Part shown: one piece after another, positions 3,201 through 27,564 of the stretch
How positions within the stretch are numbered: position 1 is the stretch's first letter
How the letters are laid out: each line of letters begins with the position of its first letter
From: an uncultured Lachnospiraceae bacterium
GTDB lineage: Bacteria > Bacillota > Clostridia > Lachnospirales > Lachnospiraceae
Reading direction: 5' to 3'
Assembly: GCA_900316665.1 (NCBI GenBank)
Contig: ONDV01000006.1
Coordinates: 8,705-72,704, forward strand
DNA: 64,000 nt
Translations under genes and position numbers: made by a program
Notes under the pieces: generated by a model
What the model was told of the DNA's origin: nothing
Database searches by the model: none
The model's input: the letters and a program-made list of their open reading frames with translations, nothing else

Positions 3201-3519
3201 ATGATTAGCAATATTACAAGTGTAATACAAAAGAAAAAGAGCATGCAGTTATGATGAAGGCGGCAAATACAAGGAATAGCTATATTGAATTGGTAACAGG
3301 CTATTTGAGAAGACGACTGGGCTATTATCCAAATAAAACCATAAGACTATGAAGGATATTACTATAGCTGGTAGTATCGACGACAGAAATAATCCGTACA
3401 CAGGGCAGACATCAGATTGTAGTTGCTGCTGGGGAGATACAGACAATGGGAAGACCGGAAACCCTGGCTTTGATGAAATGAATAGATGTAAAAAATACAA
3501 TTTTGAGAAAATAAGATGA
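3201..3519 (+). other. Three chained small ORFs (3201-3254, 17 aa; 3251-3352, 33 aa; 3349-3519, 56 aa) linked by ATGA overlaps
   Basis: Manual translation; each TGA overlaps the next ATG and the last overlaps the GT start at 3516; AGGTGA precedes 3201. Confidence 0.35.
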
Positions 3520-6029
3520 AAAAAACAGAAATAACTAGATATAAGAGTAATATTTATATTGAAGGAGTGCGTACAGACCTCTCCGGTAGTGCAGATTTGA
3601 TTTTCACTGGTTGGGTGGAATCAGGAAACCAGAACGATGTAGAAATTCAAGCTTATTGGAATGATGAACTTTGCAAAGTAGAACTCCTAGAACGCAATGA
3701 TCCAGTTTATGATAATGCATTTTTGAATGGCAGTCATGAGGGTGATGGATTTATTGGACGAATCTGTTTTCCTCTACACGCCGAGAGAAAGGGCAAGATC
3801 AAGATCGTTGAGGTGGTCTCTGGAAATGAAAAGGATATTTTTATTCAAACAGGCTTTACCGAAGATATGTTTAATAGAGTGGTCTACTTTCTGGATTCCG
3901 AAGAGATTGATGAGAATCATGTATACCGGGCTAGTGGATGGGCAGTTGGTCCGGAAGAAGTGGACATATCTGTTACGAGAAATGAAACCTTAATTCCAGC
4001 ACAGGTTACTTGGTCATTTCGAGATGATATTAAGAAACTGTTTCCGGAAGTTCCGACCAATCATAACAATGGATTTGTATTGACTGTTCATCTTGCAGGT
4101 AATGGATCCGTACCATTTCAGATTCATCTGCAATCCGATGGCGATGAAAGAATTATTGATGTTACCAAGAAAAGAATCTCTGTAATGTCGGCTCTCCATG
4201 GACCATGGTACGTTAGATATCCGTTAAAGACAGCTTTGATTGCTAAACATGAGGGAATCGGAAGATTAACCTCGGTAATTGTTGGCCGATTGAGGCCGTC
4301 CGGGGAAGTAACATATAAGAAGCATTACAAACGTACGGAGCCCAATAAATCGGACCTGAATCAAGAAATCCAGGCATCAATGCAGTTCCGGACACAACCC
4401 TTCTTCTCGATTGTGGTTCCGATGTACAGAACGAAGCCAAGGTTTCTGGATGAATTGATCCAGTCTCTGGTGGATCAGACATACTCGAACTGGGAACTGT
4501 GTCTTGCCGATGCCGGAAAAGATGATCATGGAGTTTCTCCATCTGAAAAACAGATCAAGGAGTGGCAAGAAAGGGACAAACGCATCCGTTACAAGAAACT
4601 TGACAAAAATCTTTCCATTGCCGAGAATACCAATGAGGCCATTGCCATGGCTCAGGGTGACTGGGTTGTGTTTTCAGATCATGATGATACACTTGCGCCA
4701 TTTGCATTATTTATGTGTGCACGTACCATCAATGAGAATACAGATTGTGATGTCATTTATTCTGATCAGGACATGATTAATTATCAGGGCAGCAAACGGT
4801 ATGATCCGCTTTATAAGCCGGATTACAATGAAGCTCTATTTTGCAGCCGTAATTATATTTCTCACCTGATGCTGGCAAGAAAAAGTCTTGTTGACAGTAT
4901 TGGCGGATTGAATCCTGAATTTGATGGCTCGCAGGACTATGACTTTACCTTCCGCTGCTGTGAAAAGGCTCGGCAGATCTCTCATATTCCTGTTGTGCTT
5001 TATCACTGGAGAGCTCATCAAGAGTCCACAGCCGGAAATCCTGAATCCAAGCTGTATGCATTTACCAATGGCGCGAAAGCTATTAATGCACATTATAAGA
5101 GACTTGGTATCCCGGCAGAAGCAGTACATACAGGAAACTGGGGAATCTATCGAACCACCTTCCATTGGCCTAGTTATCCGTTGGTATCTATTTTGATTCC
5201 AACCAAGGATCATGTTGACGACTTAAAGCGATGTATTTTGTCAATTGAACAGAAAACGAACTACTCGCGATATGAAATCGTTGTAATCGAAAACAACTCA
5301 GAACTGGATGAGACTTTCCAATTCTATGAAGAATTGAAAACACATAAAGAAATCAAGGTGGTTCAATATAAAGGTTCCTTTAATTATTCTGCCATTAACA
5401 ATTTTGGTGCCGAACATGCGGAGGGCGAGTACCTGCTTCTTTTGAATAATGATACAGAGGTGATCAATCCAGAATGGCTGGATGAGATGATGGGGTATGC
5501 TCAGTGCCCGGATGTGGGAATCGTAGGGGCTAAACTCTTATACCCTGACGAAACTATCCAGCATGCCGGAGTGGTTGTCGGATATGGTGGAACAGCCGGG
5601 CATGCCTTTAAAGGCCTGAAAAGGGATGACTATGGGTATATGGCAAGGTTGCTTTGTGCTCAGGATTATCTCGCAGTTACTGGTGCATGCCTACTAACGA
5701 GAAAGTCGGAATTTGAAAAAGTAGGTCGTCTGAGCGAAGATCTGGCAGTCGCATTTAATGATATTGATTATTGTCTCAAGGTCCATTCAGATGGGATGAG
5801 GTGTGTATGGACACCATATGCAGAACTTTTTCATTATGAGTCTAAGTCCAGAGGTTATGAGACAACCCCGGAGAAACAAAAACGATTTTTACAGGAGGCA
5901 GCTTTATTTGATGAAAAGTGGAAAGATATCTTAGAGAAGGGAGATCCTTATTATAATCCCAATCTGACGCTTGGAAAGGAAGACTTTTCTTTCAGAAATG
6001 AAAAGGATGCACCTATTCATTTTAGTTGA
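3516..6029 (+). CDS. Large glycosyltransferase with N-terminal beta-domains and two GT2 domains
   Basis: FSIVVPMY...DHDD...GSQDYD (GT2 no. 1) and VSILIPTK...LLNND...AFNDIDYC (GT2 no. 2). Confidence 0.92.
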   Translation: MKKTEITRYKSNIYIEGVRTDLSGSADLIFTGWVESGNQNDVEIQAYWNDELCKVELLERNDPVYDNAFLNGSHEGDGFIGRICFPLHAERKGKIKIVEVVSGNEKDIFIQTGFTEDMFNRVVYFLDSEEIDENHVYRASGWAVGPEEVDISVTRNETLIPAQVTWSFRDDIKKLFPEVPTNHNNGFVLTVHLAGNGSVPFQIHLQSDGDERIIDVTKKRISVMSALHGPWYVRYPLKTALIAKHEGIGRLTSVIVGRLRPSGEVTYKKHYKRTEPNKSDLNQEIQASMQFRTQPFFSIVVPMYRTKPRFLDELIQSLVDQTYSNWELCLADAGKDDHGVSPSEKQIKEWQERDKRIRYKKLDKNLSIAENTNEAIAMAQGDWVVFSDHDDTLAPFALFMCARTINENTDCDVIYSDQDMINYQGSKRYDPLYKPDYNEALFCSRNYISHLMLARKSLVDSIGGLNPEFDGSQDYDFTFRCCEKARQISHIPVVLYHWRAHQESTAGNPESKLYAFTNGAKAINAHYKRLGIPAEAVHTGNWGIYRTTFHWPSYPLVSILIPTKDHVDDLKRCILSIEQKTNYSRYEIVVIENNSELDETFQFYEELKTHKEIKVVQYKGSFNYSAINNFGAEHAEGEYLLLLNNDTEVINPEWLDEMMGYAQCPDVGIVGAKLLYPDETIQHAGVVVGYGGTAGHAFKGLKRDDYGYMARLLCAQDYLAVTGACLLTRKSEFEKVGRLSEDLAVAFNDIDYCLKVHSDGMRCVWTPYAELFHYESKSRGYETTPEKQKRFLQEAALFDEKWKDILEKGDPYYNPNLTLGKEDFSFRNEKDAPIHFS

Positions 6030-6162: not shown

Positions 6163-7584
6163 ATGAAAAAAAAGATATTCTGGCTACTAGCCATATTAGT
6201 CATCATTGTATTTAATATTGTATGTTTTACTAGCCGACCTGACTGGTCTAAGGAAACATTGTCTCTTGCTGTAACATTAAAAGCAGACACAACAGAGAAT
6301 ACACAGATATTTTGTCTGAAAAAAAGTGAGTCGATGAATAATATCCAATACAATCCGAAAAATGCAAGTAAACTGGTTGCGTATACAGATACTTTCGGAA
6401 AGTATATGACCCTGAATTACGAAATCCCAGCGGATACCCGAGCAATCCGGTTCGATCCATCCCAAGCATTAAATCTTACTACGATTAAGAATATTAAGCT
6501 AAGATATAAGGGTAGAACCATTGTCGACTTTATGAAATCAAATATGGATATCATTGATAGTCAGCAGACCGATATTCAAAAGGATGATAAAACAATAAAG
6601 ATTCAGACAGAAGGCGGTGATGGATATATCACCTTCGCTGTACCTGTGTCTTATAGTGCCATTGTTGCAAAAGTGCAGTCTTATGGGGAAATGTCTGCGA
6701 GGTTGAAACGTCTTTTAGCAGCCCTTGCGGTAGACTTGCTTTTTGCCTTTGTTTTTTGGAAGAGAAAAAGTGTCTTTTCCATCCCACGTGATTTATGGCA
6801 GGAGAAACGCTTAGTTTGGAATCTGGGAAAAAATGATTTTAAGGCACGTTTTGCCGGTTCCTATCTTGGAATTGTCTGGGCATTTGTCCAGCCGATAGTA
6901 ACAGTTGTTGTTTACTGGTTTGTATTTCAGAAGGCATTGAATGTTGGTACTCAGTCTACCAAAGCAGGAATACAAGTTCCTTATGTTCTCTGGCTTGTGG
7001 CAGGTCTGGTTCCTTGGTTTTACTTTTCTGACGTTGTAACTAGTGGCACCAATGTCATTGTGGAATATAGTTATCTTGTAAAAAAAGTTGTATTTAAGAT
7101 CAGCTGCCTACCTGTAGTAAAAGCTATTTCTGCTTTATTTGTTCATATGTTTTTTTTGGCATTCATTCTGATTCTGTATGCTTGCTATGGGAACTTTCCG
7201 AATCCTTATATGCTCCAGATGTTGTATTATTCGTTTGCGATGATGGTGTTGGGTTTGGCAATTATCTATTTTACAAGTGCAATCACGGTATTTTTCAGAG
7301 ATACTTCACAGATTGTCAATATAATAATGCAGGTTATGGTTTGGTTTACTCCTATTATGTGGAATATTGATGGAATGACGCTTTCGGCGCCAGTTACATT
7401 TATTATGAAGCTAAATCCGATGTTTTATGTGATTCAGGGATACCGTGATGCCCTGATTAATCATGTTTGGTTCTGGAATCATGCCGGGCTCACCATATAT
7501 TTCTGGTGTATAACAGTCATTCTTTTGATATTTGGGGCATGGATTTTCAAGAGGTTGAGGGTTCACTTCGCAGATGTGTTATAA
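6163..7584 (+). CDS. wzm: Polysaccharide ABC exporter permease Wzm/RgpC with ~200-aa N-terminal extension
   Basis: NDFKARFAGSYLGIVWAFVQP, LNPMFYVIQGYRD, FADVL terminus; adjacent to wzt. Confidence 0.9.
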   Translation: MKKKIFWLLAILVIIVFNIVCFTSRPDWSKETLSLAVTLKADTTENTQIFCLKKSESMNNIQYNPKNASKLVAYTDTFGKYMTLNYEIPADTRAIRFDPSQALNLTTIKNIKLRYKGRTIVDFMKSNMDIIDSQQTDIQKDDKTIKIQTEGGDGYITFAVPVSYSAIVAKVQSYGEMSARLKRLLAALAVDLLFAFVFWKRKSVFSIPRDLWQEKRLVWNLGKNDFKARFAGSYLGIVWAFVQPIVTVVVYWFVFQKALNVGTQSTKAGIQVPYVLWLVAGLVPWFYFSDVVTSGTNVIVEYSYLVKKVVFKISCLPVVKAISALFVHMFFLAFILILYACYGNFPNPYMLQMLYYSFAMMVLGLAIIYFTSAITVFFRDTSQIVNIIMQVMVWFTPIMWNIDGMTLSAPVTFIMKLNPMFYVIQGYRDALINHVWFWNHAGLTIYFWCITVILLIFGAWIFKRLRVHFADVL

Positions 7585-7605
7585 AGATGTTTTGAGGAAT
7601 GAATT

Positions 7606-8970
7606 ATGTCAGATGATATTGCCATCCGTGTCAGGGATGTAAGTAAATTATATAAACTTTATGATAAGAATTCAGATCGTTTCAGGGAAGCTCTGGGTCT
7701 TACGAGAAAGAAACTTTACCACGAGCACTATGCACTTCATCATATCAATTTTGATGTAAAGCGTGGAGAAACAGTAGGAATAATCGGTACGAATGGTGCT
7801 GGTAAGTCTACTATTTTAAAAATTATTACAGGTGTGCTGACCCCATCGGATGGAACGGTAGAGATTCATGGTAGAATCTCAGCTTTGCTCGAGCTTGGTG
7901 CTGGTTTCAATCAGGAATATACAGGCATGGAAAATATCTATCTGAACGGTACAATGATGGGGCTTACTAGAGAACAGGTCGAGGACAAAGTACCGGAAAT
8001 TCTCAGTTTTGCGGATATCGGTGATTTTATTAACCAGCCGGTTAAAACCTATTCATCTGGTATGTTTGTTCGTCTGGCGTTTGCTGTTGCCATTAATATC
8101 GACCCGGATATTTTGATTGTAGATGAGGCTCTGTCTGTTGGAGATATATTCTTCCAGTCAAAATGTTATAACAAGTTTGAAGAATTCAAGCGAGAAGGAA
8201 AAACAATACTTCTGGTCAGCCACGATTTGAGTTCGGTGGCAAAATATTGTGACAGAGTAATCCTTTTCAATAAGGGAGAGAAGCTTACAGAGGGAAATCC
8301 CAAGGAGATGATAAATCTCTATAAGAAGATTCTGACAGGAACTGACCGAGAACGCGATGAAATAGACAGGAAATACGGTAAATCCAAAACCAAGCCTGTC
8401 TCAGCAGCAGACGGGATGAAGACAGAAAATGAAGAATCCGCTGACAGAAATTACGAGAATCATTCTGTCAGAACAAATAATACATATGGGACAGACTGGA
8501 AGTCTCATTTTGAGATAAATCCAAATCTGAATGAATATGGTAACAGAAAAGCTGAAATATGTGATTTTGCTGTTGTTGATGAGAATGGGATGCTTACAAA
8601 TGCGATTATAAAAGGTTCTCATTTCAAGATGAAGACAAAGGTTCATTTTAATGAGACTGTAAAGAACCCTATTTTTACATATACTTTCAAGACAGTTCGG
8701 GGAATCGATGTGACCGGAACCAATACTATGTTTGAGAATAAGATAGTTCAGGTTGCAAAGAGAGGCGAGAATTATATCATTACTTATGATCAGAATATGG
8801 ATCTTCAAGGTGGTGATTATCTCTTGTCAATGAGTTGCACCGGTTATGTAAATGGAAGTCTGACAGCTTATCACAGATGCTATGACATAATCAGCGTAAC
8901 AGTGATATCTGACAAGGATACTGTTGGCTTTTATGATATGAACTCAAAGATTGAGATAGAAAAAGAGTAG
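7606..8970 (+). CDS. wzt: Polysaccharide ABC exporter ATPase Wzt/RgpD with C-terminal Wzt-C-like domain
   Basis: GTNGAGKST Walker A, YSSGM signature, ILIVDE Walker B; ~150-aa C-terminal extension. Confidence 0.95.
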   Translation: MSDDIAIRVRDVSKLYKLYDKNSDRFREALGLTRKKLYHEHYALHHINFDVKRGETVGIIGTNGAGKSTILKIITGVLTPSDGTVEIHGRISALLELGAGFNQEYTGMENIYLNGTMMGLTREQVEDKVPEILSFADIGDFINQPVKTYSSGMFVRLAFAVAINIDPDILIVDEALSVGDIFFQSKCYNKFEEFKREGKTILLVSHDLSSVAKYCDRVILFNKGEKLTEGNPKEMINLYKKILTGTDRERDEIDRKYGKSKTKPVSAADGMKTENEESADRNYENHSVRTNNTYGTDWKSHFEINPNLNEYGNRKAEICDFAVVDENGMLTNAIIKGSHFKMKTKVHFNETVKNPIFTYTFKTVRGIDVTGTNTMFENKIVQVAKRGENYIITYDQNMDLQGGDYLLSMSCTGYVNGSLTAYHRCYDIISVTVISDKDTVGFYDMNSKIEIEKE

Positions 8971-8982
8971 AGATGGTTCGAT

Positions 8983-10851
8983 ATGCCTGAAGACAGGAAA
9001 GATTATATCATCGAAAACTGGAACAGAATACTGGGATGGCTTCCTGTGAGAGCAGGCGATAAGGTTCTCATTCTGGCAGATTCTGACCTCCCGTTGAAGA
9101 TTACTTTTTGTACCGGAATCACTGTGGATGTGTTGAAAAGGGAGTCGTTTGATAAGTACACCGGAAAATATGATTTCATTATTTTTTCAGATGTATCTTC
9201 CATGACGCTTTCTGAGCTGGATAAAAGTCTGTCTATTGCTAAGAATTATTTGAATTTTTCAGGGAGAGTATGTCTGGTTTCGCGGAATCGATTGTCATAC
9301 AGAAATCTGATTGGAATGAGAATACCTGAAGAAAAGGGTTATGTCATACCCAGAAAGAATATCGATGACAGAATACCTTTTACCAGAAAAGAACTGGTTA
9401 GTGCTGCAAGAAAATATTTTCATACTTCGTTTTTTTATCCGGCTCCTTTTTTCAATATGGTAACAGATATATATAGTGACAGATCGTTACCTGAAAAAAC
9501 GGGTTATTTCGAGGATTCCTTTTATTATGGGTATGACAGAACCTATATCCATCACGATTATGATATATATAATGCAGTGATTGACGAGGGGCTGTATACG
9601 GAACTGGCTGATGCTTTTATTCTTATTTGTGCAAGAAGGCATCCAGACAGGGGATTGCCTGACAGGGTGCACTATTCCATCAGGAGGAGCAATCAATTCA
9701 AAACGATTACACTAATCAGCAGGAAGTTTGTAGAAAAAATACCGTTTTCGAACGATGCACGCAGTCATATTGATAATATGAGGACGGTCTATAAAAGATT
9801 AACCGAAAACAGAGCGAATCTAACGATAAGGTGGAACCGTATTCTAAAAGAGAATAACGGCAGAATTAAATTTGAATACAGGAGCGGGAAGACTCTGGAA
9901 GAGCTGCTTGATGAGAAGCTCCTCTTGAATGATATTGACGGGATTGAATCTGAGATAAAAAGATATTTTGATATGTTCAAGGTGTATTCTGTTGGGAAGA
10001 AATTCACTCTCTCGGAGAAATTTAATAATGTTTTCGGGGTGCTGGATGAAGTTGAGTTAAAACTTTTATCCGGTAAAGAAATTTTGGAAATTACGGACAT
10101 AGACTGCATATTCGGAAATGTGCTGACAAATGGCTCAGAAGATACATTTGAAATAGTAGACTATGAGTGGTCTTTTTATTTCCCGATACCCTGGGATTAT
10201 GTCATGTGGAGATGCATCCATTATTATCTGAATTTCAAAGAAGTCAGGAAGAAAATGCTGGGGAATAGACTCTACAGCTTCTTTAAGATAGGCGATGCTG
10301 AAAGATCAGTATATGAAAAGATGGAAAAACACTTTCAGGAATATGTGGCAGGTACAGATGGAACCTACCGGGAGTCATTGAAAGATCGGGGAAGTGTACT
10401 AAGTACAGAACGGCTGCTTATGAACTGGCGAAATCTGGTGCAGGCTGATGGAGTAAAGATTTATTATGACAGAGGAGCAGGTTTCTCCGAGGCGGACAGC
10501 TTGAAAGTGATTCCTGAAAAAATAGATGAAAACATGTGGAAAGTGATAATAGAAGTGCCTGAAGATGTTCAGACTTTAAGGTTTGATCCATCTGAACGAA
10601 TTGGAAAGTTCTATTTATATGGTATTCAAACGAAAAATTCAAAGTTATTAGACTATGAATTTATAAACATGGAAGAAAGGAGTGAAGATAAGGAAGTAAG
10701 AATATTTGATATTATAAACAATGATCCGCAGATTCTTATCAAAAATGCTGCAGGACAAAGACTTGAGATCATTTTTAGAATATCGATTGGACTTCGTCTT
10801 CAATATGACACAGATCCTATGGAGACGCTTAATGATATAGACATATTCTAA
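8983..10851 (+). CDS. Multidomain protein: degenerate class I methyltransferase-like N-terminus, APH/choline-kinase-like domain, C-terminal LRFDP module
   Basis: FEYRSGKTL, DCIFGN (D-x4-N) and VDYEW kinase-like motifs; lies immediately after wzt. Confidence 0.6.
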   Translation: MPEDRKDYIIENWNRILGWLPVRAGDKVLILADSDLPLKITFCTGITVDVLKRESFDKYTGKYDFIIFSDVSSMTLSELDKSLSIAKNYLNFSGRVCLVSRNRLSYRNLIGMRIPEEKGYVIPRKNIDDRIPFTRKELVSAARKYFHTSFFYPAPFFNMVTDIYSDRSLPEKTGYFEDSFYYGYDRTYIHHDYDIYNAVIDEGLYTELADAFILICARRHPDRGLPDRVHYSIRRSNQFKTITLISRKFVEKIPFSNDARSHIDNMRTVYKRLTENRANLTIRWNRILKENNGRIKFEYRSGKTLEELLDEKLLLNDIDGIESEIKRYFDMFKVYSVGKKFTLSEKFNNVFGVLDEVELKLLSGKEILEITDIDCIFGNVLTNGSEDTFEIVDYEWSFYFPIPWDYVMWRCIHYYLNFKEVRKKMLGNRLYSFFKIGDAERSVYEKMEKHFQEYVAGTDGTYRESLKDRGSVLSTERLLMNWRNLVQADGVKIYYDRGAGFSEADSLKVIPEKIDENMWKVIIEVPEDVQTLRFDPSERIGKFYLYGIQTKNSKLLDYEFINMEERSEDKEVRIFDIINNDPQILIKNAAGQRLEIIFRISIGLRLQYDTDPMETLNDIDIF

Positions 10852-10886
10852 AAATATATGAATACCACTAAAAATATATGAATACC
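10848..10886. repeat. Tandem direct repeat CTAAAAATATATGAATACC x2 (period 20)
   Basis: Exact copies at 10848-10866 and 10868-10886, spanning a stop codon and the next start codon. Confidence 0.9.
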
Positions 10887-13772
10887 CCCAATATTTTAAA
10901 AAGACACCTAAAGCGTGCTTTCGATATCCTGCTTCATCAGGGACCAAAGGCATTCTTAGGAAAAGTAAAGCTGAAAATAAAGGAATCGAAGCGTATCGAA
11001 TTGCCGAGACGGACTGAAGAGGAGAGGATTCCTTTCCATTCGTCTTCTGGTGAGCCGGAGTGCGACATGACGCTGGCAGTGCATATTCACCTTTTCTATG
11101 ATGATCTGGCGGACGAATTTATTTCTGCGCTCAAAAATATTCCGATAAGGTTCGATCTATTTATTTCTGTGAGAGAGGCAATAACGGATGACAGGCTTTC
11201 AGAGCTTTCCCGGCTTTTCAAGTCATGCTGCGACGGGCAGGTGACTATAGAGAGGGCGCCGAACCGGGGACGTGATATTGCGCCTATGTTTTCTCAGTTT
11301 GCAGCCCGGTTGATGAGATATGATCTGGTTCTTCATATGCATTCGAAGAAATCGCTTTATACCGGGACCGAGCAGAAGGACTGGAGGACATATTCTGTAG
11401 ATGCCCTGATCGGCAGCAGGGAGAGGGCGGCTGATCTCTTAAGCCTTATTATTGAGAGAAAAGACATAGGTATAGTCTACCCAAAGCGCTTTTCCGGCAT
11501 GGCGCCGGAAGCTTACGGATGGCTGTCAAATGAAAAGAAGGGCAGAGATTTTCTTGAGTCAATGGGGATCCCTTTCTCCGGCGGCATCTTTTTGTACCCG
11601 GCAGGAAGTTTCTATCTCGTGAGAAATGATGCCATCAGGCAGATCTGGAACAGGAGACTAAATCTTAACGACTTTGACGAGGAGATGGGACAGACTGACG
11701 GGACGCTTGCGCACGTTATTGAGAGAGCTGTCTCTATAGTATCGAGATACAATGGTTACTGTGATGCCATAATCGATATGGATGACAAGAGTTTCCATAT
11801 CGGTTCGGATATCGATACTTTTTCCCCTGTACTGGCGCGTGGCTATGATCATGTTTTTACAGATCTTGCGTCATATGACATAGTAAGCTTTGATATGTTT
11901 GATACCCTGGTCACGAGGAAGATCAAAGATGCAGGAGAACTCTTTTCCTATATTCCTTTAGCCGCATCAGGACTCCTTGATGGTACCCTGCTGTCAGATT
12001 GTGTTTTGAATACTGCCTGCGATGATTCAATTCCCGGTCAGGCAGGGACAATAAAGGATATTGCCGGTCTATATGGTATAAATATTGATGAAAGCATCAC
12101 GGACGAAACGCATGCCGGGATAAAGAAAATCATTTCACTTGGCAGAAAGGCTTTCAGAGACATAAGGATTTCAGCTGAGCTTGATGCCATAGACAGATAC
12201 GGCGACAGGGCAGATATATATAAGATATATGAATGCATGAGAAAATATCTGAAGCCGGATGGCGAATCGGAGAAGATCCTTCTGACGGCTGAATTATGGC
12301 TTGAGGAGGAGTGTATCATTCCGAGAAGGGAGATGTGCGATCTTTTAAACCGGCTTATTGATAATGGTTCTCATGTAATCATCACAACCGATATGTATCT
12401 GCCGGAAGATTTCATAAAGCGAATTCTAAATAAATTTAACATACGATATGAGCACTTGTATCTCTCATGCGCTGAAGGAAAAAGGAAGGATGACGGCAGT
12501 ATGTGGGATATGCTGCTTGAGAAATATAAGGGCAGGACATTTGCTCATACAGGTGATAACCAGCAGTCTGACTGGCAGACTCTTTCTGACAGAGGAGAAA
12601 AGACTGTATGGATCATGAGCCCCGGCACTGAAAAAAGGATTAACGGTTTTGATGCAGGCGCCGGTGCGGGTACTTTTTCGGAAGAGCTGATGGTGCAGGG
12701 AGGTTTATTTAATTCGCCTTTTTCAATATGCCCTGATGGAGCCATACATATAAGAAGCACGTTTGACATGGGTTACTCCATATTTGGACCGCTGATCTAT
12801 GAATATATGAAGTGGCTTCACGGTATCGAAGGCGATCAGATCCTCTTCCTTGCAAGAGAGGGATGGATATTTAAAAAGATATACGAGATCATATACGGAT
12901 CAAGTGATAGAAATATTTATCTCCTGGCATCCCGAAGGGCAGTGTCAGTAGCGGCTATAAGGTCGATGGCTGATGTGGAGGAGATACTGGGAAGAGCATA
13001 TGACGGCTCGCTTCATAATATTCTTGATTCCAGACTCGGTATGCCGGGCAATATGATAAAGAACTTTAAAGACAGGCAGATACATATCGAGGATGGCGGT
13101 ATTGGCTCTGACTACCGGAATATAATAAATGACCTAAAGCCCTTCGAGGAAGAGATCCTCGAATATGCCGGGAAGGAAAGGAAAAATTATCTTGCTTATC
13201 TCGATGGGATAGGCATATCTGATGGAGATGTGATGGCAGACATCGGCTACTCCGGTACGATCCAGTATTACATGACAAAGCTTCTCGGTCATCCTACCCG
13301 CGGAGCATATCTTGCGGTCTTTAAGGGAAATAAAAAGCTCCTCGCTCTGGGGTCTGAAGTACATGCCATGTATATGGGCGGCAGGGATGATTTTTCCGAT
13401 GTGATAAAGGATACCCAGCTCTATCTGGAGAGCGTATTAAAGGCTCCTTACGGCCAGCTGCTCTGCTTCAATGATGACGGAGAACCTGTATATAAGGATG
13501 AGGCTCCTATGTCGATAGAAACTTCTGAGATCCAGGAGGGTATGATACGCTACGCCATGGACAGGTCGTCATCGGAAAAAATCATGGCAATGGATAATGG
13601 CTCACTGGACGATGAAGCTGACAGAAAGTTTATGGAGAGAGCCTACAGATACCTCCTTATTGATCACGATGTAATCGATCATGACCTGTCATCTGTCTTC
13701 TCCGTAGAGGACAGTTACAGTCAGGATACGAGGCTCCATCTGGATCCGTCTACCGGGAGGTGGGTGATATGA
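10878..13772 (+). CDS. RgpF (rhamnan synthesis F)-like domain fused to HAD phosphatase and PRTase-like domain (putative ribofuranosyltransferase module)
   Basis: VHIHLFY, NRGRDIAP, HSKKS, FYPAGSF, HVIER (RgpF); FDMFDTL, TTDMYL, HTGDN (HAD); FLAREG, ASRR, DIGYSGTIQ (PRTase-like). Confidence 0.75.
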   Translation: MNTPNILKRHLKRAFDILLHQGPKAFLGKVKLKIKESKRIELPRRTEEERIPFHSSSGEPECDMTLAVHIHLFYDDLADEFISALKNIPIRFDLFISVREAITDDRLSELSRLFKSCCDGQVTIERAPNRGRDIAPMFSQFAARLMRYDLVLHMHSKKSLYTGTEQKDWRTYSVDALIGSRERAADLLSLIIERKDIGIVYPKRFSGMAPEAYGWLSNEKKGRDFLESMGIPFSGGIFLYPAGSFYLVRNDAIRQIWNRRLNLNDFDEEMGQTDGTLAHVIERAVSIVSRYNGYCDAIIDMDDKSFHIGSDIDTFSPVLARGYDHVFTDLASYDIVSFDMFDTLVTRKIKDAGELFSYIPLAASGLLDGTLLSDCVLNTACDDSIPGQAGTIKDIAGLYGINIDESITDETHAGIKKIISLGRKAFRDIRISAELDAIDRYGDRADIYKIYECMRKYLKPDGESEKILLTAELWLEEECIIPRREMCDLLNRLIDNGSHVIITTDMYLPEDFIKRILNKFNIRYEHLYLSCAEGKRKDDGSMWDMLLEKYKGRTFAHTGDNQQSDWQTLSDRGEKTVWIMSPGTEKRINGFDAGAGAGTFSEELMVQGGLFNSPFSICPDGAIHIRSTFDMGYSIFGPLIYEYMKWLHGIEGDQILFLAREGWIFKKIYEIIYGSSDRNIYLLASRRAVSVAAIRSMADVEEILGRAYDGSLHNILDSRLGMPGNMIKNFKDRQIHIEDGGIGSDYRNIINDLKPFEEEILEYAGKERKNYLAYLDGIGISDGDVMADIGYSGTIQYYMTKLLGHPTRGAYLAVFKGNKKLLALGSEVHAMYMGGRDDFSDVIKDTQLYLESVLKAPYGQLLCFNDDGEPVYKDEAPMSIETSEIQEGMIRYAMDRSSSEKIMAMDNGSLDDEADRKFMERAYRYLLIDHDVIDHDLSSVFSVEDSYSQDTRLHLDPSTGRWVI

Positions 13773-14896
13773 CATCCTTATCAGTAATCATTCCTGCACA
13801 CAATGCAGAGGATACCTTGCCTGATCTCATAAAAGCCATAGAGAGTCAGACGGTAAAGCCAGACGAAGTAATAATAATAGATGACTGTTCTTCAGATAAG
13901 ACCTGTGAATACCTGAGCGGTCTTTCTGATCCTCTCTATCATATAATAAAGAATGATAGAAATATCGGCGCTGCAGCATCAAGAAATCTAGGCATCAGGG
14001 AGGCACAAGGAAAATATATAGTCTTTCTGGATGCGGATGATATTATAGAACCGGATCTTTTTGAGAAAGTATCTGAAGCGGCAATAAGTGATCCTGACAT
14101 CATAGTATGGTCAGTATCTGAGGAATATATAAACCGGGATAAGAAAACGGTCTATGTAAGGAAACATGAATGCGGCTGTGAATTTGCCGGAAAGCTGATA
14201 TCGCCGGGAGATGAATATGCTGCTTTAATAAGAGACCTCGAAAAGGCGACCATATTCGGATATCCATGGAACAAGGCTTATAAGAAAGATCTCCTGACCG
14301 GAAAGAAAATAGAATTTCCTCCGCTCGACTTTGCAGAGGATTTTTTCTTCAATGCCGATGCATTCTCGGCAGCCTATGGTGTCATCTGTCTCACCGATAC
14401 GCTCTATCATTATATAAACAGGGCGGATCAGGGCAGACTTACTGAAAGATATGTGCCTGATTATTTTCAGATACAAAAAGACAGATTCAAAAAATTCCTG
14501 TCCCTTCAGGCGGAATTGATGGGTCTTATCGGTAATGATTCTTATTTAGATATTGATGCTTCCGGTTTACCGGATGAGAAAGCTGCCGGATGGCGAGAGG
14601 CTCTGGAGATAGCGTCAGGTAGGTATTTCAGATCTTTTTCATCTATGATTGGAAGGGAACTGGAGCATGGAACTGACAGGAAGACTATAATTGAAAAGAC
14701 TAAAGACGAGATGAAAGAGAGTGAACTCTACCGGCTGCTAAGAATTCATTTGGGCGACTTCGGCATGGCGGGGAGGTATCTCTATCAGCCTCTCGTAAAG
14801 GGAAATGCTTTTGCTGCCGTAAACCATGCCTCTTTACTCATTAAAATAAGGCGGCTCTGCCCCGGACTTTTTGCGAGAATGAAACAGAATCGGTGA
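13769..14896 (+). CDS. Glycosyltransferase family 2
   Basis: SVIIPAHN, IDDCSSD, ASRNLG, FLDADD, WNKAYK, AEDFFF; start taken at ATG 13769 (GGAGG RBS, ATGA overlap). Confidence 0.9.
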   Translation: MTSLSVIIPAHNAEDTLPDLIKAIESQTVKPDEVIIIDDCSSDKTCEYLSGLSDPLYHIIKNDRNIGAAASRNLGIREAQGKYIVFLDADDIIEPDLFEKVSEAAISDPDIIVWSVSEEYINRDKKTVYVRKHECGCEFAGKLISPGDEYAALIRDLEKATIFGYPWNKAYKKDLLTGKKIEFPPLDFAEDFFFNADAFSAAYGVICLTDTLYHYINRADQGRLTERYVPDYFQIQKDRFKKFLSLQAELMGLIGNDSYLDIDASGLPDEKAAGWREALEIASGRYFRSFSSMIGRELEHGTDRKTIIEKTKDEMKESELYRLLRIHLGDFGMAGRYLYQPLVKGNAFAAVNHASLLIKIRRLCPGLFARMKQNR

Positions 14897-14899
14897 TCT

Positions 14900-15811
14900 A
14901 TGAAGACTACGGTTATTACGCCTTTTTTCAGAGGCAATGAATATATGATTGACTATGTCAGGATGATAGAAGAAAATGCTTCTTCGCTTGACAGAGACGC
15001 AGGCGAGGATTTAGATGTCATTATCGTAAACGACAGTCCCGGATATGAAGTGGATCTGTCATCTTACCGTGATAAGTCAGTCAGTATAAGGGTAATAAAT
15101 AATGAGAAAAATCTTGGAATACACGGTTCCAGAGTCAGAGGTCTCACAGCAGCTGATGGGGACTATGTGATTTTTCTGGATCAGGATGATATCTTAAAAA
15201 GTGACGCTGTCCATCTTTTTGAGAAGGTTGCGAAAGAGAAAAGGAATACGGTAATCGTGTCAAATGCCATTCTGGAGCAGGATGGCTGGAAAGGCATGTG
15301 GTGCAGGACTGCCTACCAGGCATCTCTTGTAGGGGATCTAGATACTTATCTTTTGGTCGGAACTCAGATAGTATCGCCAGGTCAGTGCCTGATTCCAAGA
15401 GATATGATACCGGAGGCATGGAAGAAGAATTTCTTAAAAAGAAACGGAGCGGATGATTATTTTCTCTGGATCCTTATGCTGGAGTCCGGAGTAAGTTTTA
15501 CATACCTTGACGAGTCGCTCTATACTCACAGATTTACGGATAAAAATATCTCGGCTGATACTGAGAAGACGGACGCTTCCGTTTATGAATTTGCCGAGAT
15601 CCTCGCAGCTGATGAGAAGACTTCTTTTGACAGGGAGAAGATTAAAAAAGACATGAAGACGCTTCGCAATATGATATCCATGAAGGCGTCATGGAGGAAA
15701 TCCGGACCCGGAGGAAAAATTCTGACAGGATTCCGGCATCCCATGATTCTTCTTTCAAATATAAATTACAAGATCCGGACGAAGACGCCGCCGGGATTCA
15801 ATCGGCAGTGA
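14900..15811 (+). CDS. Glycosyltransferase family 2
   Basis: VITPFF, VNDSP, FLDQDD, GADDY motifs. Confidence 0.88.
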   Translation: MKTTVITPFFRGNEYMIDYVRMIEENASSLDRDAGEDLDVIIVNDSPGYEVDLSSYRDKSVSIRVINNEKNLGIHGSRVRGLTAADGDYVIFLDQDDILKSDAVHLFEKVAKEKRNTVIVSNAILEQDGWKGMWCRTAYQASLVGDLDTYLLVGTQIVSPGQCLIPRDMIPEAWKKNFLKRNGADDYFLWILMLESGVSFTYLDESLYTHRFTDKNISADTEKTDASVYEFAEILAADEKTSFDREKIKKDMKTLRNMISMKASWRKSGPGGKILTGFRHPMILLSNINYKIRTKTPPGFNRQ

Positions 15812-15925: not shown

Positions 15926-16732
15926 TTAAAATGATTTATCGTATTTCTTCCCGAAAAGTTTTGCGGCGAGAAAAGACCGGATCTTTAATCCCCAGTTAAC
16001 AGGCTCGGGAGAAAAGACTCCTATCTCTCTGACAGTGATCCCGGAGGCTTTCTCGTGATAAAGCCATACATTGAAGAGAATCTCGCTGACCCTTCCGAAA
16101 AGCCGCTTTTCAAAGCTGCTGAGTCCTGTGAGGTCGATTTTATCTTCCATATCAAGGAGAATCGGAAAGAGCCAGGATGCGTATTTATCCAGTGTAGATC
16201 TGTCAGTGATGAACATGTTCCACATATATCCCCAGGTCCTTTTTGTGGCTGTATCAAAGGAAGCAAGATATTCAGGACAGGTATCTTTTATTATCTCTCT
16301 TGCCAAATCAAGATGTGATCCGTCAAGCGTATGAGAGTAGTGCGAATAGAGAGTTTCTATTACATACCGCCTCTTTTTTGGAACGATAATAAATGGCTTA
16401 TTGCATCCTTCTATGATGGACGAAAGCTCATCAGATGTGAGGACGGATTCGGTCCAGGGATGTTTTTTTCGGAAGGAGGCGCTTTTCACGGTGAAATATC
16501 TCCGGTAGTGCACAAGTCCCTGATAATCGGATGTCCCGTTTCGCCAGAGCCAGTATAAGCCGGTAAGTTCGCAGTAGAGCGGGTTCTTTTCGGATATGGA
16601 ATCCCCGCTGTCGTCTCCCTGATATCCCTTGATAGGATCATGAAGAGCAGCTCCAACCTGAAGAGGCAGATAGCTGCTGTCTGACGGCATTTTATAGGGC
16701 TTGTGTGTGCAGACTATAATTGTTGTATTCAT
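15926..16732 (-). CDS. DUF4422 family glycosyltransferase (galactofuranosyltransferase-like)
   Basis: IVCTHK, PLQVGAA, DDSGDSISEKNPLYCELTGLYW, GLVHYRRYF, NMFI, SERxFNVWL-type motifs. Confidence 0.85.
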   Translation of the reverse strand: MNTTIIVCTHKPYKMPSDSSYLPLQVGAALHDPIKGYQGDDSGDSISEKNPLYCELTGLYWLWRNGTSDYQGLVHYRRYFTVKSASFRKKHPWTESVLTSDELSSIIEGCNKPFIIVPKKRRYVIETLYSHYSHTLDGSHLDLAREIIKDTCPEYLASFDTATKRTWGYMWNMFITDRSTLDKYASWLFPILLDMEDKIDLTGLSSFEKRLFGRVSEILFNVWLYHEKASGITVREIGVFSPEPVNWGLKIRSFLAAKLFGKKYDKSF

Positions 16733-16799: not shown

Positions 16800-16887
16800 A
16801 GATTTCCCGGCTACATGAAATCTTCACATCATTGTGTTAATATATTGCCTTGCATCAAAAGGGAAGACTGTATATTTGGAGGGCTAC

Positions 16888-18312
16888 ATGTACAGGTCTG
16901 AAAAAAAGAGCTGGATAAAACATCTGGATTTTACATTGCTGGATATCATAATGCAGCAGCTGGCACTTGTCTTGGCGTACAGCTGGAGATTCAATGCCTG
17001 GGATATAGACGGAGTATGGCTGTATTCAAGCTCGCTATATAAAAGGGTGGCGCTTATTGTCATACTTATAGATGTATGCGTCGTCTTCTTTACTGATTCC
17101 TATTCCGGGATCCTGAGGAGGAATAAGTTCGGGGAACTCAGATCCACGATCATTCATTGCAGTGTGATATTCGGGATTCTCATGGTATTTCTGGCCGCGA
17201 CGAAGCAGACCTTTCTCTATTCCAGAAAGACACTCTTTATGTACTTCATTCTGGCCATTATCCTGGAATACATAGAGAGAGTGTATCTGAAGCGCTATAT
17301 CAGATGGAGAAAGCTGAAAGACATAGACAAGGCGCAGATGATCGTGGTGACTGAAAGCGCTAAAGTAAAAAAATGCATTGATGATATAGCGACGGACAAA
17401 TATGCTGACTTCAAGGTGACGGGAGCAGTTGTTGTAGACAGGGACCTTATCGGAGAGTCCATAGACGGAGTTCCTGTGGTGGCTACCGCGGATACATTTC
17501 TTGACTATGTACGAAAGAACGTAGTGGATGAAGTGCTTATTGACGGCAATACGATTGCAAGTTCGGAGGCTCTGGCATCTGAACTTGTGGAACTTGGCGT
17601 GACAGTGCATATAGCTCTGGTCCATACCGGACAAATGATGCCGTCAAAGAAGATAGACAGTTACGGAGAATATGTGGTTCTCACCACCTCCATGCATATA
17701 GCAAGCACGAGACAGCTTTTCTTCAAGCGTTTTATGGATATTGTCGGATCGATAGTAGGTCTGATACTGACAGGCATCGCCTTTATTATCTTTGCGCCGA
17801 TCATAAAGCACCAGTCGCCGGGACCGGTCTTTTATTCCCAGATCAGAATCGGCAGAAACGGGCGGCGATTCAAGTTCTATAAATTCCGCTCCATGTATCC
17901 TGACGCCGACAAAAGATTAAGTGAGCTGATGGACAAAAACGAGATGCAGGGGCTGATGTTCAAGATGGATGATGATCCGAGAATCATTCCCATCGGACGT
18001 TTCATGAGAAAATATTCGATCGATGAGCTTCCGCAGTTCTTTAATGTTCTGAAGGGAGATATGTCGCTTGTGGGTACGAGACCGCCTACAGAAAATGAGT
18101 TTGAGAAATATAAATATCACCATAAGGCACGCCTGGCTTTCAGACCGGGACTTACTGGAATGTGGCAGGTAAGCGGACGGTCTGACATCACTGATTTTGA
18201 AGAAATAGTACGTCTGGATACGCAATATATTTCAAATTGGACGCCGTTACTCGATATCAAGATCCTATTCAAGACCATCGGCGTTGTCTTGTCCGGGAAA
18301 GGAAGTAAATGA
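16888..18312 (+). CDS. Priming polyprenyl glycosylphosphotransferase (bacterial sugar transferase)
   Basis: KRFMDI, KFRSM, DDPRI, DELPQFFNVLKGDMSLVGTRP, RPGLTGMWQVSGRS; ATG 16888 follows GGAGGG. Confidence 0.95.
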   Translation: MYRSEKKSWIKHLDFTLLDIIMQQLALVLAYSWRFNAWDIDGVWLYSSSLYKRVALIVILIDVCVVFFTDSYSGILRRNKFGELRSTIIHCSVIFGILMVFLAATKQTFLYSRKTLFMYFILAIILEYIERVYLKRYIRWRKLKDIDKAQMIVVTESAKVKKCIDDIATDKYADFKVTGAVVVDRDLIGESIDGVPVVATADTFLDYVRKNVVDEVLIDGNTIASSEALASELVELGVTVHIALVHTGQMMPSKKIDSYGEYVVLTTSMHIASTRQLFFKRFMDIVGSIVGLILTGIAFIIFAPIIKHQSPGPVFYSQIRIGRNGRRFKFYKFRSMYPDADKRLSELMDKNEMQGLMFKMDDDPRIIPIGRFMRKYSIDELPQFFNVLKGDMSLVGTRPPTENEFEKYKYHHKARLAFRPGLTGMWQVSGRSDITDFEEIVRLDTQYISNWTPLLDIKILFKTIGVVLSGKGSK

Positions 18313-19379
18313 GAGAAATCGTTCCTGTGATAATACCTGCATATGAGCCGGATGAGAATATGATAAGTCTCCTCCGGTCTCTTCGTGACCAAAATATCGG
18401 TCCGGTCATAGTAGTGGACGACGGAAGCGGTGAAGCTTATTCCAGCCTCTTCGAGAAAGCGGAGAGTATAGTAAGAGAGGACGGTGGAGTCCTCCTTACT
18501 CATGAGGTGAACCGGGGTAAAGGGGCTGCGCTGAAGACCGCATTTTCCTACATTCTTGAAAAATAACCCGACGCCATCGGCTCGGTGACTGCGGACTCTG
18601 ACGGCCAGCATACAGCCGATGCGATCAGCAATGTGAAAGATACGCTTATTAAAAACCCCGGCTCGCTGATTCTCGGCGTCAGGATGTTTGACGGAGAGGA
18701 TGTCCCCTGGAGAAGCCGGTTTGGAAATAATCTCACGGTAAAGGTTTTTTCATTGGTCACCGGGCTGCATGTAAGCGATACCCAGACAGGGCTTAGAGGC
18801 ATACCTCTGTCATTCATGAGAGAGCTCCTCGATGTCCCGGGGGACAGGTTCGAGTTCGAGACCAGGATGCTGATAAAGAGCGCGAAGCGTTATCCTGTCG
18901 TGGAGATAAAGATAGAGACGATCTACGATTCAAAGGATAATCATAAGACGCATTTCAGACCTGTCGCTGATTCCATCAAGATCTACCGGGTGCTCTTTGA
19001 GACATTTGGAAAATATATCTTCGCTTCGCTATCGTCTTTCCTTATAGATATCCTTCTGTTTCAGCTCTTTTTCAATCTGCTCAGGGGAAATATCGCATCA
19101 TCAGCTGCGGTGGCAACGGTGGCGGCCAGAGTCATTTCGGCGACATATAATTACATCATGAATTATAAAGTCGTATTCAAAAGCCGGGAACCGCAGGGCA
19201 GGGCTGCTGTAAAATATCTGATCCTTGCTTTATCACAAATGGCCTGCTCCGCAGGGCTTGTAACGCTCGGAACCATTATATTCAGTTCTGTGCCGGCAGT
19301 TGTGATAAAGATAATAGTAGACACTTTGCTTTTCCTTATCAGCTATCAGATACAAAAGCACCTGGTTTTCAGGGAGTAA
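18309..19379 (+). pseudogene. GT2 (DPM1-like)-GtrA fusion interrupted by in-frame TAA at 18564-18566
   Basis: Two ORFs in one frame read ...ILEK*PDAIGSVTADSDGQH...; downstream DTQTGLRG, FEFE and a GtrA-like hydrophobic C-terminus. Confidence 0.85.
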
Positions 19380-27381: not shown

Positions 27382-27564
27382 ATGGAAAACAAAAGTGTAT
27401 CAATGTGTATTCGTGTAAGTCAAGAAGAATTACAGCGGCTAAAACAGGCGGCAAGATTAGAAAAGTATTCTTCATATAGTGAGTTTGTCAGACGCACCGC
27501 ACTACTTGAAGCTGATAACGTGATTAAAAACAATGACAGCGAAAATGTAAAGGAGAACAGATGA
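27382..27564 (+). CDS. Ribbon-helix-helix (DUF1778-like) DNA-binding protein
   Basis: SVSMCIRVS strand followed by [10 protein letters not shown] and [10 protein letters not shown] helices; GGAGGT RBS; ATGA overlap with the MTase. Confidence 0.7.

Follow-up and report, generated by a model that had tools for sequence, protein, structure and literature searches.

The incorporation of ribofuranose (Ribf) from phosphoribosyl pyrophosphate (PRPP) was worked out only between 2022 and 2025, almost wholly in Gram-negative pathogens. In this chemistry, a glycan phosphoribosyltransferase (gPRT) transfers β-Ribf-5-phosphate from PRPP and a phosphoribose phosphatase (PRP) then dephosphorylates it (PMC11127046, PMC11294581). 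The pair can share its polypeptide with other domains, as in Bcs3 of Haemophilus influenzae type b, which consists of CroT (residues 1-373), the HAD phosphatase CrpP (374-591), CriT (592-1036), a ribose-5-phosphate transferase whose α/β core resembles that of the phosphoribosyltransferases (PRTases), and an SH3b domain (PMC10299916). Within Bcs3, D680 and E818 stand in for the DD motif of PRTases, and their mutation lowered the activity of the enzyme (PMC10299916). In Cj1432 of Campylobacter jejuni HS:2, biochemical work has shown the transfer of ribose-5-phosphate from PRPP to be followed by dephosphorylation and then by addition of the next sugar by an N-terminal glycosyltransferase (GT), a GT4 enzyme that puts glucuronic acid (GlcA) on C2 of the just-installed ribose (PMC12096443). 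An ORF (open reading frame) of the Escherichia coli K13/K20/K23 capsule group, recognized only via its predicted structure, correlates with polymers of 3-deoxy-D-manno-oct-2-ulosonic acid (Kdo) and Ribf. The present analysis concerns a relative of these proteins from an uncultured Lachnospiraceae bacterium, encoded at 10878..13772 on the forward strand of a 64,000-nucleotide stretch of contig ONDV01000006.1 (hereafter, the window). This fusion protein is probably a trifunctional enzyme that assembles glycan in the cytoplasm for an ABC-transporter-dependent cell-wall or capsular polysaccharide pathway; gPRT transfer, HAD dephosphorylation and extension by a GT of the GT-A fold would be combined in its one chain.

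The gene is a single ORF with an ATG start that encodes 964 aa, and the division of its product into a GT-A glycosyltransferase, a PRP and a gPRT can be given with high confidence; all of the parts are on the plus strand. At the N terminus, both AlphaFold models contain a basic helical hairpin (aa 1-48, 10878..11021), with helices at aa 3-21 and aa 23-37 and pLDDT values of 52-86 over the two models, which may possibly act as a membrane- or partner-association element. It is followed by the RgpF-like GT-A module (aa 60-310, 11055..11807), recognized by Pfam family PF05045 and by its fold, and by the HAD-type, PRP/CrpP-like phosphatase (aa 334-592, 11877..12653, with a helical cap at about aa 348-480), delimited by alignment to CrpP of Bcs3 and to the N-terminal half of 7SHG, the dual-domain ribofuranosyltransferase (Rft) of Thermobacillus composti. 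The core and helical bundles of the gPRT/CriT-like module (aa 600-935, 12675..13682) were delimited by profile and Foldseek, and a short C-terminal β-strand tail (aa 936-964, with the stop codon, 13683..13772) by model and alignment. The AlphaFold2 model of the whole protein, built from a 60-sequence alignment, has a mean pLDDT of 89.6 and a pTM of 0.89.

An earlier reading of this DNA, made from the letters alone and referred to here as the sequence-only reading, had named a series of motifs in this 964-aa ORF, and all of them lie where it placed them: FDMFDTL at 338-344, TTDMYL at 503-508, HTGDN at 557-561 and SD at 564-565, and, further along the chain, FLAREG at 657-662, ASRRA at 684-688 and DIGYSGTIQ at 788-796. 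RKDDG, at 536-540, is an additional motif. Conservation was judged on an alignment of 60 homologues with identity down to 28 %, across which D339, D342, K537, G559, D560, D565, R660, S685 and R686 are invariant, as are D788, G790, G793 and Q796, together with E851 in the gPRT and D945 in the C-terminal tail. The motifs and their conservation are confirmed to be far beyond chance.

The last ~630 aa of the protein are recognized by no Pfam or NCBIfam family, and the NCBIfam result for the whole chain is a sub-threshold HAD-IA match alone, at aa 496-567. The region aa 335-890 is nonetheless homologous to the dual-domain Rfts, and every hallmark of PRP and gPRT that could be checked is present. 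A phmmer search of PDB sequences with the protein itself finds Bcs3 at an E-value of 1e-7 (query 335-770 to Bcs3 383-800), and hmmsearch with a family profile raises this to 1e-45 and finds 7SHG at 1.2e-40, with profile positions 336-890 aligned to residues 32-607 of the chain, that is, to both 7SHG domains. In the Foldseek comparison of the model with the PDB, the eight best matches are Bcs3 chains (E 2.8e-21) and 7SHG (E 4.4e-18); generic HAD proteins rank after them, and classical PRTases are absent among the top Foldseek and profile matches. The sequence-only reading had proposed just this pairing of a HAD phosphatase with a PRPP-type gPRT, as in the dual-domain Rfts and the CrpP/CriT part of Bcs3, with a Foldseek search against such structures as a check; the profile and PDB matches, the leading place of Bcs3 and 7SHG, and the conserved catalytic residues bear it out.

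At the level of residues, the phosphatase has its nucleophile at D339 (within FDMFDTL), motif II at T503/T504-D505, motif III at K537 and, beyond it, G559-D560-N561 and D565. As in the dual-domain Rfts, motif I is of the CrpP type, with only the first Asp of DXD, and motifs II-IV are present. The C-terminal domain is homologous to gPRT/CriT by both profile and Foldseek, and its three loops are FLAREG (loop 1), ASRRA (loop 2) and DIGYSGTIQ (loop 3). After the chain indices of Bcs3 had been converted to native numbering, with the offset checked on S678/R679/D680 and S707/R708/R712, D339 corresponds to Bcs3 D386, K537 to K548, A659-R660-E661 to S678-R679-D680 in loop 1, S685-R686 to S707-R708 in loop 2, and Q796 to Q826 in loop 3. 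The acidic pair is accounted for by E661, which is at least 90 % conserved, and the invariant D788, which align with D680 and E818, respectively. Based on these alignments, a Ribf-transferase/phosphatase function is very likely.

The sole Pfam domain of the protein is RgpF (PF05045, aa 64-294, E 1.9e-35, 122.9 bits against a cut-off of 25), so that an RgpF-like domain does come first, as had been read from the letters. RgpF has been assigned to dTDP-rhamnose-dependent rhamnan elongation in streptococci and lactococci (PMC10821137). When the N-terminal part was modelled alone with AlphaFold (aa 1-331, pLDDT 89.5), the basic helical hairpin (aa 3-37) was followed by an α/β domain which, to judge from this model, is a divergent GT-A fold. 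Its neighbours in a Foldseek search of the PDB are all GT-A proteins but of varied specificity (mannosylglycerate synthase, ArnC, DPMS, K4CP, TarS, LH3 and GfsA), and the matches are weak, the best having an E-value of 4e-5 and a TM-score of about 0.4; the family-profile search of PDB sequences gave zero matches for this module. Across the 60 homologues, the signatures NRGRD (129-133), HMHSKKS (153-159) and GQTDGTLAH..ER (271-283) are strongly conserved, which argues for the module being an active enzyme. By analogy with RgpF, rhamnose (Rha) is a tentative choice of donor, with a chance that falls a little short of even.

In the proposed mechanism, the gPRT would move β-D-ribofuranose-5-phosphate from PRPP, with inversion, to the non-reducing sugar of an undecaprenyl-linked glycan, E661 and D788 gripping the ribose and the DIGYSGTIQ loop, together with S685/R686, gripping the phosphates; E851 is a candidate for the base. 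The HAD module, with D339 as its nucleophile, would then strip the 5-phosphate, and the RgpF-like GT-A would add the next sugar, most probably L-rhamnose from dTDP-Rha and probably onto the new ribofuranose. The product would be an 'X-Ribf' unit, extended with a double-GT2 protein and other GTs and then exported by Wzm/Wzt. PRPP as the donor, the β-linkage and the order of the first two steps are drawn from homology, whereas the donor and acceptor of the GT-A, and the place of the unit in the repeat, are suggested by analogy and context only; the third step in particular follows the analogy of Cj1432, Bcs3 and the E. coli K13/K23-group ORFs. A place for the Ribf unit in the backbone, rather than as a cap or branch, is somewhat favoured.

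The surroundings of the gene are those of an ABC-transporter-dependent cell-wall polysaccharide locus of a rumen Firmicute. Wzm, Wzt with its Wzt_C domain and a Bac_transf protein occur in one co-directional gene run, the order of which is a short-chain epimerase/dehydratase, a GT2, an ArnC/PgfS-like GT2, a double GT2, Wzm, Wzt, a 622-aa protein and the fusion gene, followed by two GT2s, a DUF4422 gene on the opposite strand and a WbaP/EpsZ-type initiating transferase. Other GT modules amount to seven GT2 modules and a GT111. The Wzm permease (ABC-2 type) and the Wzt ATPase with its C-terminal carbohydrate-binding domain are encoded at 6163..8970 (+; PF01061, PF00005 and PF14524, E 8e-36). Downstream of the fusion gene are the two GT2 glycosyltransferases of 375 and 303 aa (13769..15811, +; PF00535, E 2e-32 and 3e-17), the DUF4422 or GT111-type galactofuranosyltransferase (15926..16732, -; PF14393, E 6e-77), which matches the N-terminal GT111 domain of WbbM (6U4B) at an E-value of 7e-32, and the initiating polyprenyl-phosphate glycosylphosphotransferase of the WbaP/EpsZ type (16834..18312, +; Bac_transf E 2e-66; TIGR03025 386 bits, above the cut-off). 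Rumen metagenome contigs carrying 100 % identical genes extend the locus directly upstream of the window, where glf, rmlB, rmlD, a ChW-cellulase gene, rmlA, rmlC, a GtrA gene and genes for two unassigned proteins are found. With rmlABCD and glf upstream, the locus has a dedicated supply of dTDP-Rha and UDP-galactofuranose (UDP-Galf), and PRPP belongs to housekeeping metabolism. Elsewhere, the window is a stretch of ordinary Firmicute chromosome, including genes for the seryl- and threonyl-tRNA synthetases, FtsH, UvrC, HPr kinase and MurB, and the best named homologues of the fusion protein are from Lachnospiraceae.

The likely catalytic partner of the fusion protein is the double-GT2 protein (837 aa, 3516..6029, +; Pfam), whose two GT2 modules carry DHDD and NND as motifs. 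Its full-length alignment with the product of a gene that adjoins the Pseudobutyrivibrio ruminis homologue of the fusion gene shows 41 % identity. In Klebsiella O7, ORF6, which has two dTDP-Rha GT2 modules, polymerizes a Rha3-Ribf repeat with the stand-alone ribofuranosyltransferase ORF7; the DHDD and NND motifs of the double-GT2 protein share a DXDD/NXD pattern with ORF6, a likeness by motif pattern only. How often such genes keep company with the fusion was surveyed by tblastn of RmlA-D, Glf, Wzm, Wzt and others against the 10 kb on either side of the homologue in 80 related loci, the counts being given with no baseline. The double-GT2 protein is present in 13 of these, those of an archaeon and of Burkholderia included, and is the most frequent companion among the GTs of the window; Wzt-like genes are present in 29. 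The 622-aa product of the gene that follows wzt (8983..10851, +) has no family assignment, since it gave no match in Pfam, NCBIfam or the PDB, and it does not resemble the 662-aa protein that holds the corresponding place in Pseudobutyrivibrio. Its weak homologues (22-32 % identity) adjoin the fusion gene in six of the 80 loci, and a role as regulator, or as the chain terminator required by systems whose Wzt has a carbohydrate-binding domain, is speculative.

The two ends of the fusion gene have features of their own. At the 3' end, the TGA stop and the start codon of the following GT2 gene (13769) share bases as ATGA, and a Shine-Dalgarno sequence, GGGAGG, is found upstream of that start codon, still within the fusion gene, which suggests translational coupling of the two; the equivalent ATG is the start of the next gene in the gene call of rumen metagenome contig L081. 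At the 5' end, no Shine-Dalgarno sequence is visible within window positions 10848-10886. The same segment holds a perfect 20-bp tandem duplication, CTAAAAATATATGAATACCA x2, which spans the start codon and is the same in five independent contigs. Its upstream copy creates a mini-ORF of seven codons (ATG at 10858, TGA at 10881), the stop codon of which shares bases with the start codon of the fusion gene at 10878.

Several further observations concern the locus and the window at large. The ArnC/PgfS-like GT2 lies at 2009-2944 (+; NCBIfam E 5e-52 and 4e-47, below cut-off), and just upstream of the window (contig L082, 7574-9982) are the GtrA-like gene and the genes for the two unassigned proteins, of 161 and 451 aa; taken together, these suggest a separate, extracytoplasmic arm for side-chain glycosylation. 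The ChW-repeat cellulase is a GH5 enzyme encoded between rmlD and rmlA (L082 3590-5527). At 18309-19379 (+), a gene of the polyprenyl-phosphate sugar synthase type, which encodes a GT2 with a GtrA-like transmembrane part, has an in-frame TAA (18564-18566) that divides it into pieces of 85 and 264 aa without a change of frame; the split is called alike in the independent metagenome contig L081, and the gene is likely a pseudogene. Elsewhere in the window, a single 674-aa ORF (27561-29585, +) joins methylase and nuclease in one polypeptide, with a C5 cytosine DNA methyltransferase at aa 1-330 (PF00145, E 4e-100) and a HaeIII-type restriction endonuclease at aa 364-661 (PF09556, E 1e-134).

The fusion is widespread and far from unusual: it occurs at no fewer than 475 loci, which come from 11 or more phyla, and makes up at least 150 clusters when grouped at 50 % identity, and other GT-phosphatase-gPRT fusions have already been characterized. 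Relatives are encoded by 475 of the first 600 pattern matches, with one genome taken per GTDB species, and the homologues that span at least 85 % of the protein fall into more than 120 clusters at 90 % identity. Among the best 80 relatives, nearly all matches begin at aa ~60-66 and so include the GT-A module; they come from the Lachnospiraceae, other Clostridia, Bacilli and Selenomonadales, from the Acidobacteriota, Chloroflexota, Actinomycetota, Nitrospirota, Verrucomicrobiota, Bacteroidota and Armatimonadota, from α-, β-, γ- and δ-proteobacteria (Stenotrophomonas, Dyella, Nitrosomonas, Burkholderia, Alteromonas and others) and from one archaeon of the Methanoregulaceae. An exhaustive HMMER scan of 1.84 billion 50 %-identity representatives returned 953 matches at E <=1e-30, and in all 150 of the best 150 (E <=2e-82), which range in length from ~900 to 3,302 aa, the N- and C-terminal parts were each matched separately. 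Some homologues carry extra methyltransferase, GT2, GT4 or GT8 domains.

The homologue of Burkholderia seminalis DSM 23518 (L072 9677-12584) deserves separate mention. A frameshift, which marks either a pseudogene or an error of assembly, breaks it into two ORFs that overlap in different frames, one with the RgpF part (9677-10705) and one with the remaining RgpF, the HAD and the gPRT parts (10395-12584). The capsule locus around it is of the Wza/KpsMT type, and rmlB and rmlA are adjacent. The [Ribf-GalNAc] O-antigen of Burkholderia, considered as a lead to the sugar partner, was dropped because this homologue belongs to a different, capsule-type locus and is frameshifted.

A number of points weigh against the account of a three-step enzyme that joins Ribf and Rha. 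The model gives low global TM-scores (0.25-0.40) against both Bcs3 and 7SHG, and two Bcs3 residues are not kept: R712 aligns with S690, and A659 takes the place of S678. The PF05045 match is limited to profile positions 270-503 of 503, the C-terminal half, so that a full-length RgpF is not represented, and the Foldseek search of the PDB found no close solved relative of the N-terminal module. That module is also without a classical DXD, the place of which is occupied by HxHSKKS; GT-A enzymes usually carry DXD there. For these reasons, the donor sugar of the module is unreadable from sequence or fold. In the neighbour survey, only about 12-15 of the 80 related loci have rml genes inside the 10 kb on either side of the homologue; such genes are often located elsewhere in a genome. 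Because the locus holds many other GTs, the position of the Ribf may be in the backbone, in a branch, in an adaptor or in a cap, and, to our knowledge, the RgpF-like GT-A/PRP/gPRT architecture is known from sequence and models alone. The low TM-scores are tentatively attributed to a differing orientation of the domains, which differs likewise in STM0726 (Salmonella T1 paper). They were rejected as evidence against homology, since the E-values, the match probabilities and the profiles all point the same way and re-orientation of domains is on record for the family.

Of the other explanations, the one that stays nearest to the proposed mechanism retains the ribofuranose chemistry but has the GT-A use a sugar other than rhamnose (e.g. 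Galf, Glc, Gal or an amino sugar) or build the Ribf acceptor, and it has a sizeable chance of being correct, if one well below even. It draws on the restriction of the RgpF match to the C-terminal half of the model and on fold neighbours that are unspecific GT-A enzymes, a fungal Galf-transferase among them, and it gains from the fact that the fused GTs of characterized GT-PRP-gPRT proteins use GlcA, ribitol-phosphate or Kdo. Yet the RgpF family name rests on rhamnan synthesis. The genomic setting speaks both ways: rml adjoins the homologue in a minority of related loci, and glf and GT111 are present here, but rmlABCD is part of the locus and rml genes also adjoin homologues in Xanthomonadales, Burkholderia and several Clostridia, and Galf is already served by the dedicated GT111. 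A less probable explanation, and an unlikely one, places the fusion protein outside the repeat-unit polymerase, where it would add a single Ribf as an adaptor, a branch or a non-reducing-end cap, for example as a terminal signal for the carbohydrate-binding domain of Wzt. All of the characterized Rfts, fused or stand-alone, act in repeat-unit polymerization, the purpose of the PRP step is to permit further chain extension, and a fused second GT implies addition after or beside Ribf; these points have to be set against a Wzt that bears a C-terminal carbohydrate-binding module (Pfam Wzt_C), a gene position directly after wzt and the unassigned 622-aa protein, and seven GT2 modules plus GT111 that would be enough for a repeat unit without the fusion protein. 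In other ABC-transporter-dependent O-antigen systems, the carbohydrate-binding module of Wzt recognizes the chain-terminating residue.

The explanation that departs furthest would make the protein a HAD small-molecule phosphatase (e.g. an FMN phosphatase) or a plain rhamnan synthase, with 370 C-terminal aa that are non-catalytic or structural. It takes its case from database names and from a C-terminal region without a Pfam or NCBIfam model, and it is extremely improbable, as that region is homologous to CriT and 7SHG in both sequence and structure with its catalytic residues invariant, motif I is of the CrpP type with a single Asp rather than a canonical DXD, and the gene sits in a polysaccharide locus. 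The sequence-only reading had foreseen that automated annotation would serve such proteins poorly, and near-identical proteins or homologues do carry the names 'FMN phosphatase YigB (HAD superfamily)', 'predicted HAD superfamily hydrolase' and 'rhamnan synthesis F family protein', or are labelled 'hypothetical'. Its further proposal of a single-chain Rha/Ribf polymerase is plausible in part: a Rha/Ribf polymer fits the context of rmlABCD, glf and the double-GT2 protein, but a self-sufficient polymerase is unlikely because the locus has many more GT modules. The reading of the protein as a trifunctional enzyme of gPRT transfer, HAD dephosphorylation and GT-A extension is thus the one retained here.

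The fusion protein reveals no new mechanism; its interest lies in recognition. Since the gPRT has no Pfam or NCBIfam model, proteins of this kind are misnamed 'HAD hydrolase', 'FMN phosphatase' or 'rhamnan synthesis protein', and recognition of the module would make β-Ribf predictable in the surface glycans of hundreds of species, cultured and uncultured, including such dominant rumen fibre degraders as Butyrivibrio, Pseudobutyrivibrio and other Lachnospiraceae, and, beyond the gut and rumen Firmicutes, in those of environmental bacteria. Three consecutive reactions per chain is also the format wanted for cell-free glycan synthesis, for which the family offers candidate one-chain tools. A bolder and rather doubtful proposition is that these proteins make up a class of their own, ancient and very widespread, of self-contained polymerase modules that form 'sugar-Ribf' disaccharides, with a GT-A clade specialized for a freshly dephosphorylated β-ribofuranose acceptor. 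Were it true, Ribf-containing (probably Rha-Ribf) wall polymers would be common and unrecognized in rumen and gut Lachnospiraceae, Selenomonadales, Xanthomonadales, nitrifiers and others.

Set beside the systems already described, the fusion protein shares with the dual-domain Rfts (7SHG, Klebsiella pneumoniae O4 ORF5 and O7 ORF7, and Salmonella STM0726) the order of HAD phosphatase followed by gPRT, and its loops are nearly those of the T. composti enzyme (FLAREG/FLSREG, ASRRA/VSRKA and DIGYSGTIQ/DVGWKGTIQ), although identity in the structural alignment with the dual-domain Rfts is ~15 %. The dual-domain Rfts also serve ABC-transporter-dependent pathways, but they are stand-alone proteins of two domains and ~600 aa, whereas the fusion protein adds a 330-aa N-terminal region with the RgpF-like GT-A. 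Bcs3 (CroT-CrpP-CriT-SH3b; 8A0C/8A0M) likewise has a third transferase fused at its N terminus and is the best PDB match in sequence and fold alike, with equivalents of D386, K548, R679, D680, S707, R708 and E818 kept. The alignment between the two spans CrpP and CriT only, however, and the fused transferase of Bcs3 is a TagF-like GT-B enzyme for ribitol-phosphate where that of the fusion protein is a GT-A. The helical bundle HB-3, the SH3b domain and the C-terminal amphipathic helix bundle of Bcs3 are all absent, because the chain ends ~35 aa after the last gPRT helix, and without a TagF-like module or SH3b the protein is not a Bcs3-type enzyme.

The best functional analogue is Cj1432, in which GT4, phosphatase and gPRT follow one another in the same module order. 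Its N-terminal GT, however, is a GT4 of the GT-B fold that uses UDP-GlcA, rather than an RgpF-like GT-A. [quoted passage not shown] The E. coli K13/K20/K23-group ORF is similar in carrying three modules in a single reading frame, of more than 1,100 aa, but its fused GT is a GT99-like Kdo transferase of a Gram-negative capsule, and it is set apart from the fusion protein by description. Streptococcal and lactococcal RgpF also operate in ABC-transporter-dependent pathways together with rmlABCD, like the locus described here, but canonical RgpF has no HAD or gPRT part, and the fusion protein has half of the PF05045 model (a Pseudobutyrivibrio homologue matches positions 174-503). The literature search did not link RgpF or PF05045 to ribofuranose or phosphoribosyl transfer, the survey of Kelly et al. 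2022 being a place where the fusion might be listed. A GT fused N-terminally to a PRP-gPRT pair is already documented in the TagF-like, GT4 and GT99-like forms, and the RgpF-like GT-A is a fourth GT type fused to a ribofuranosyltransferase.

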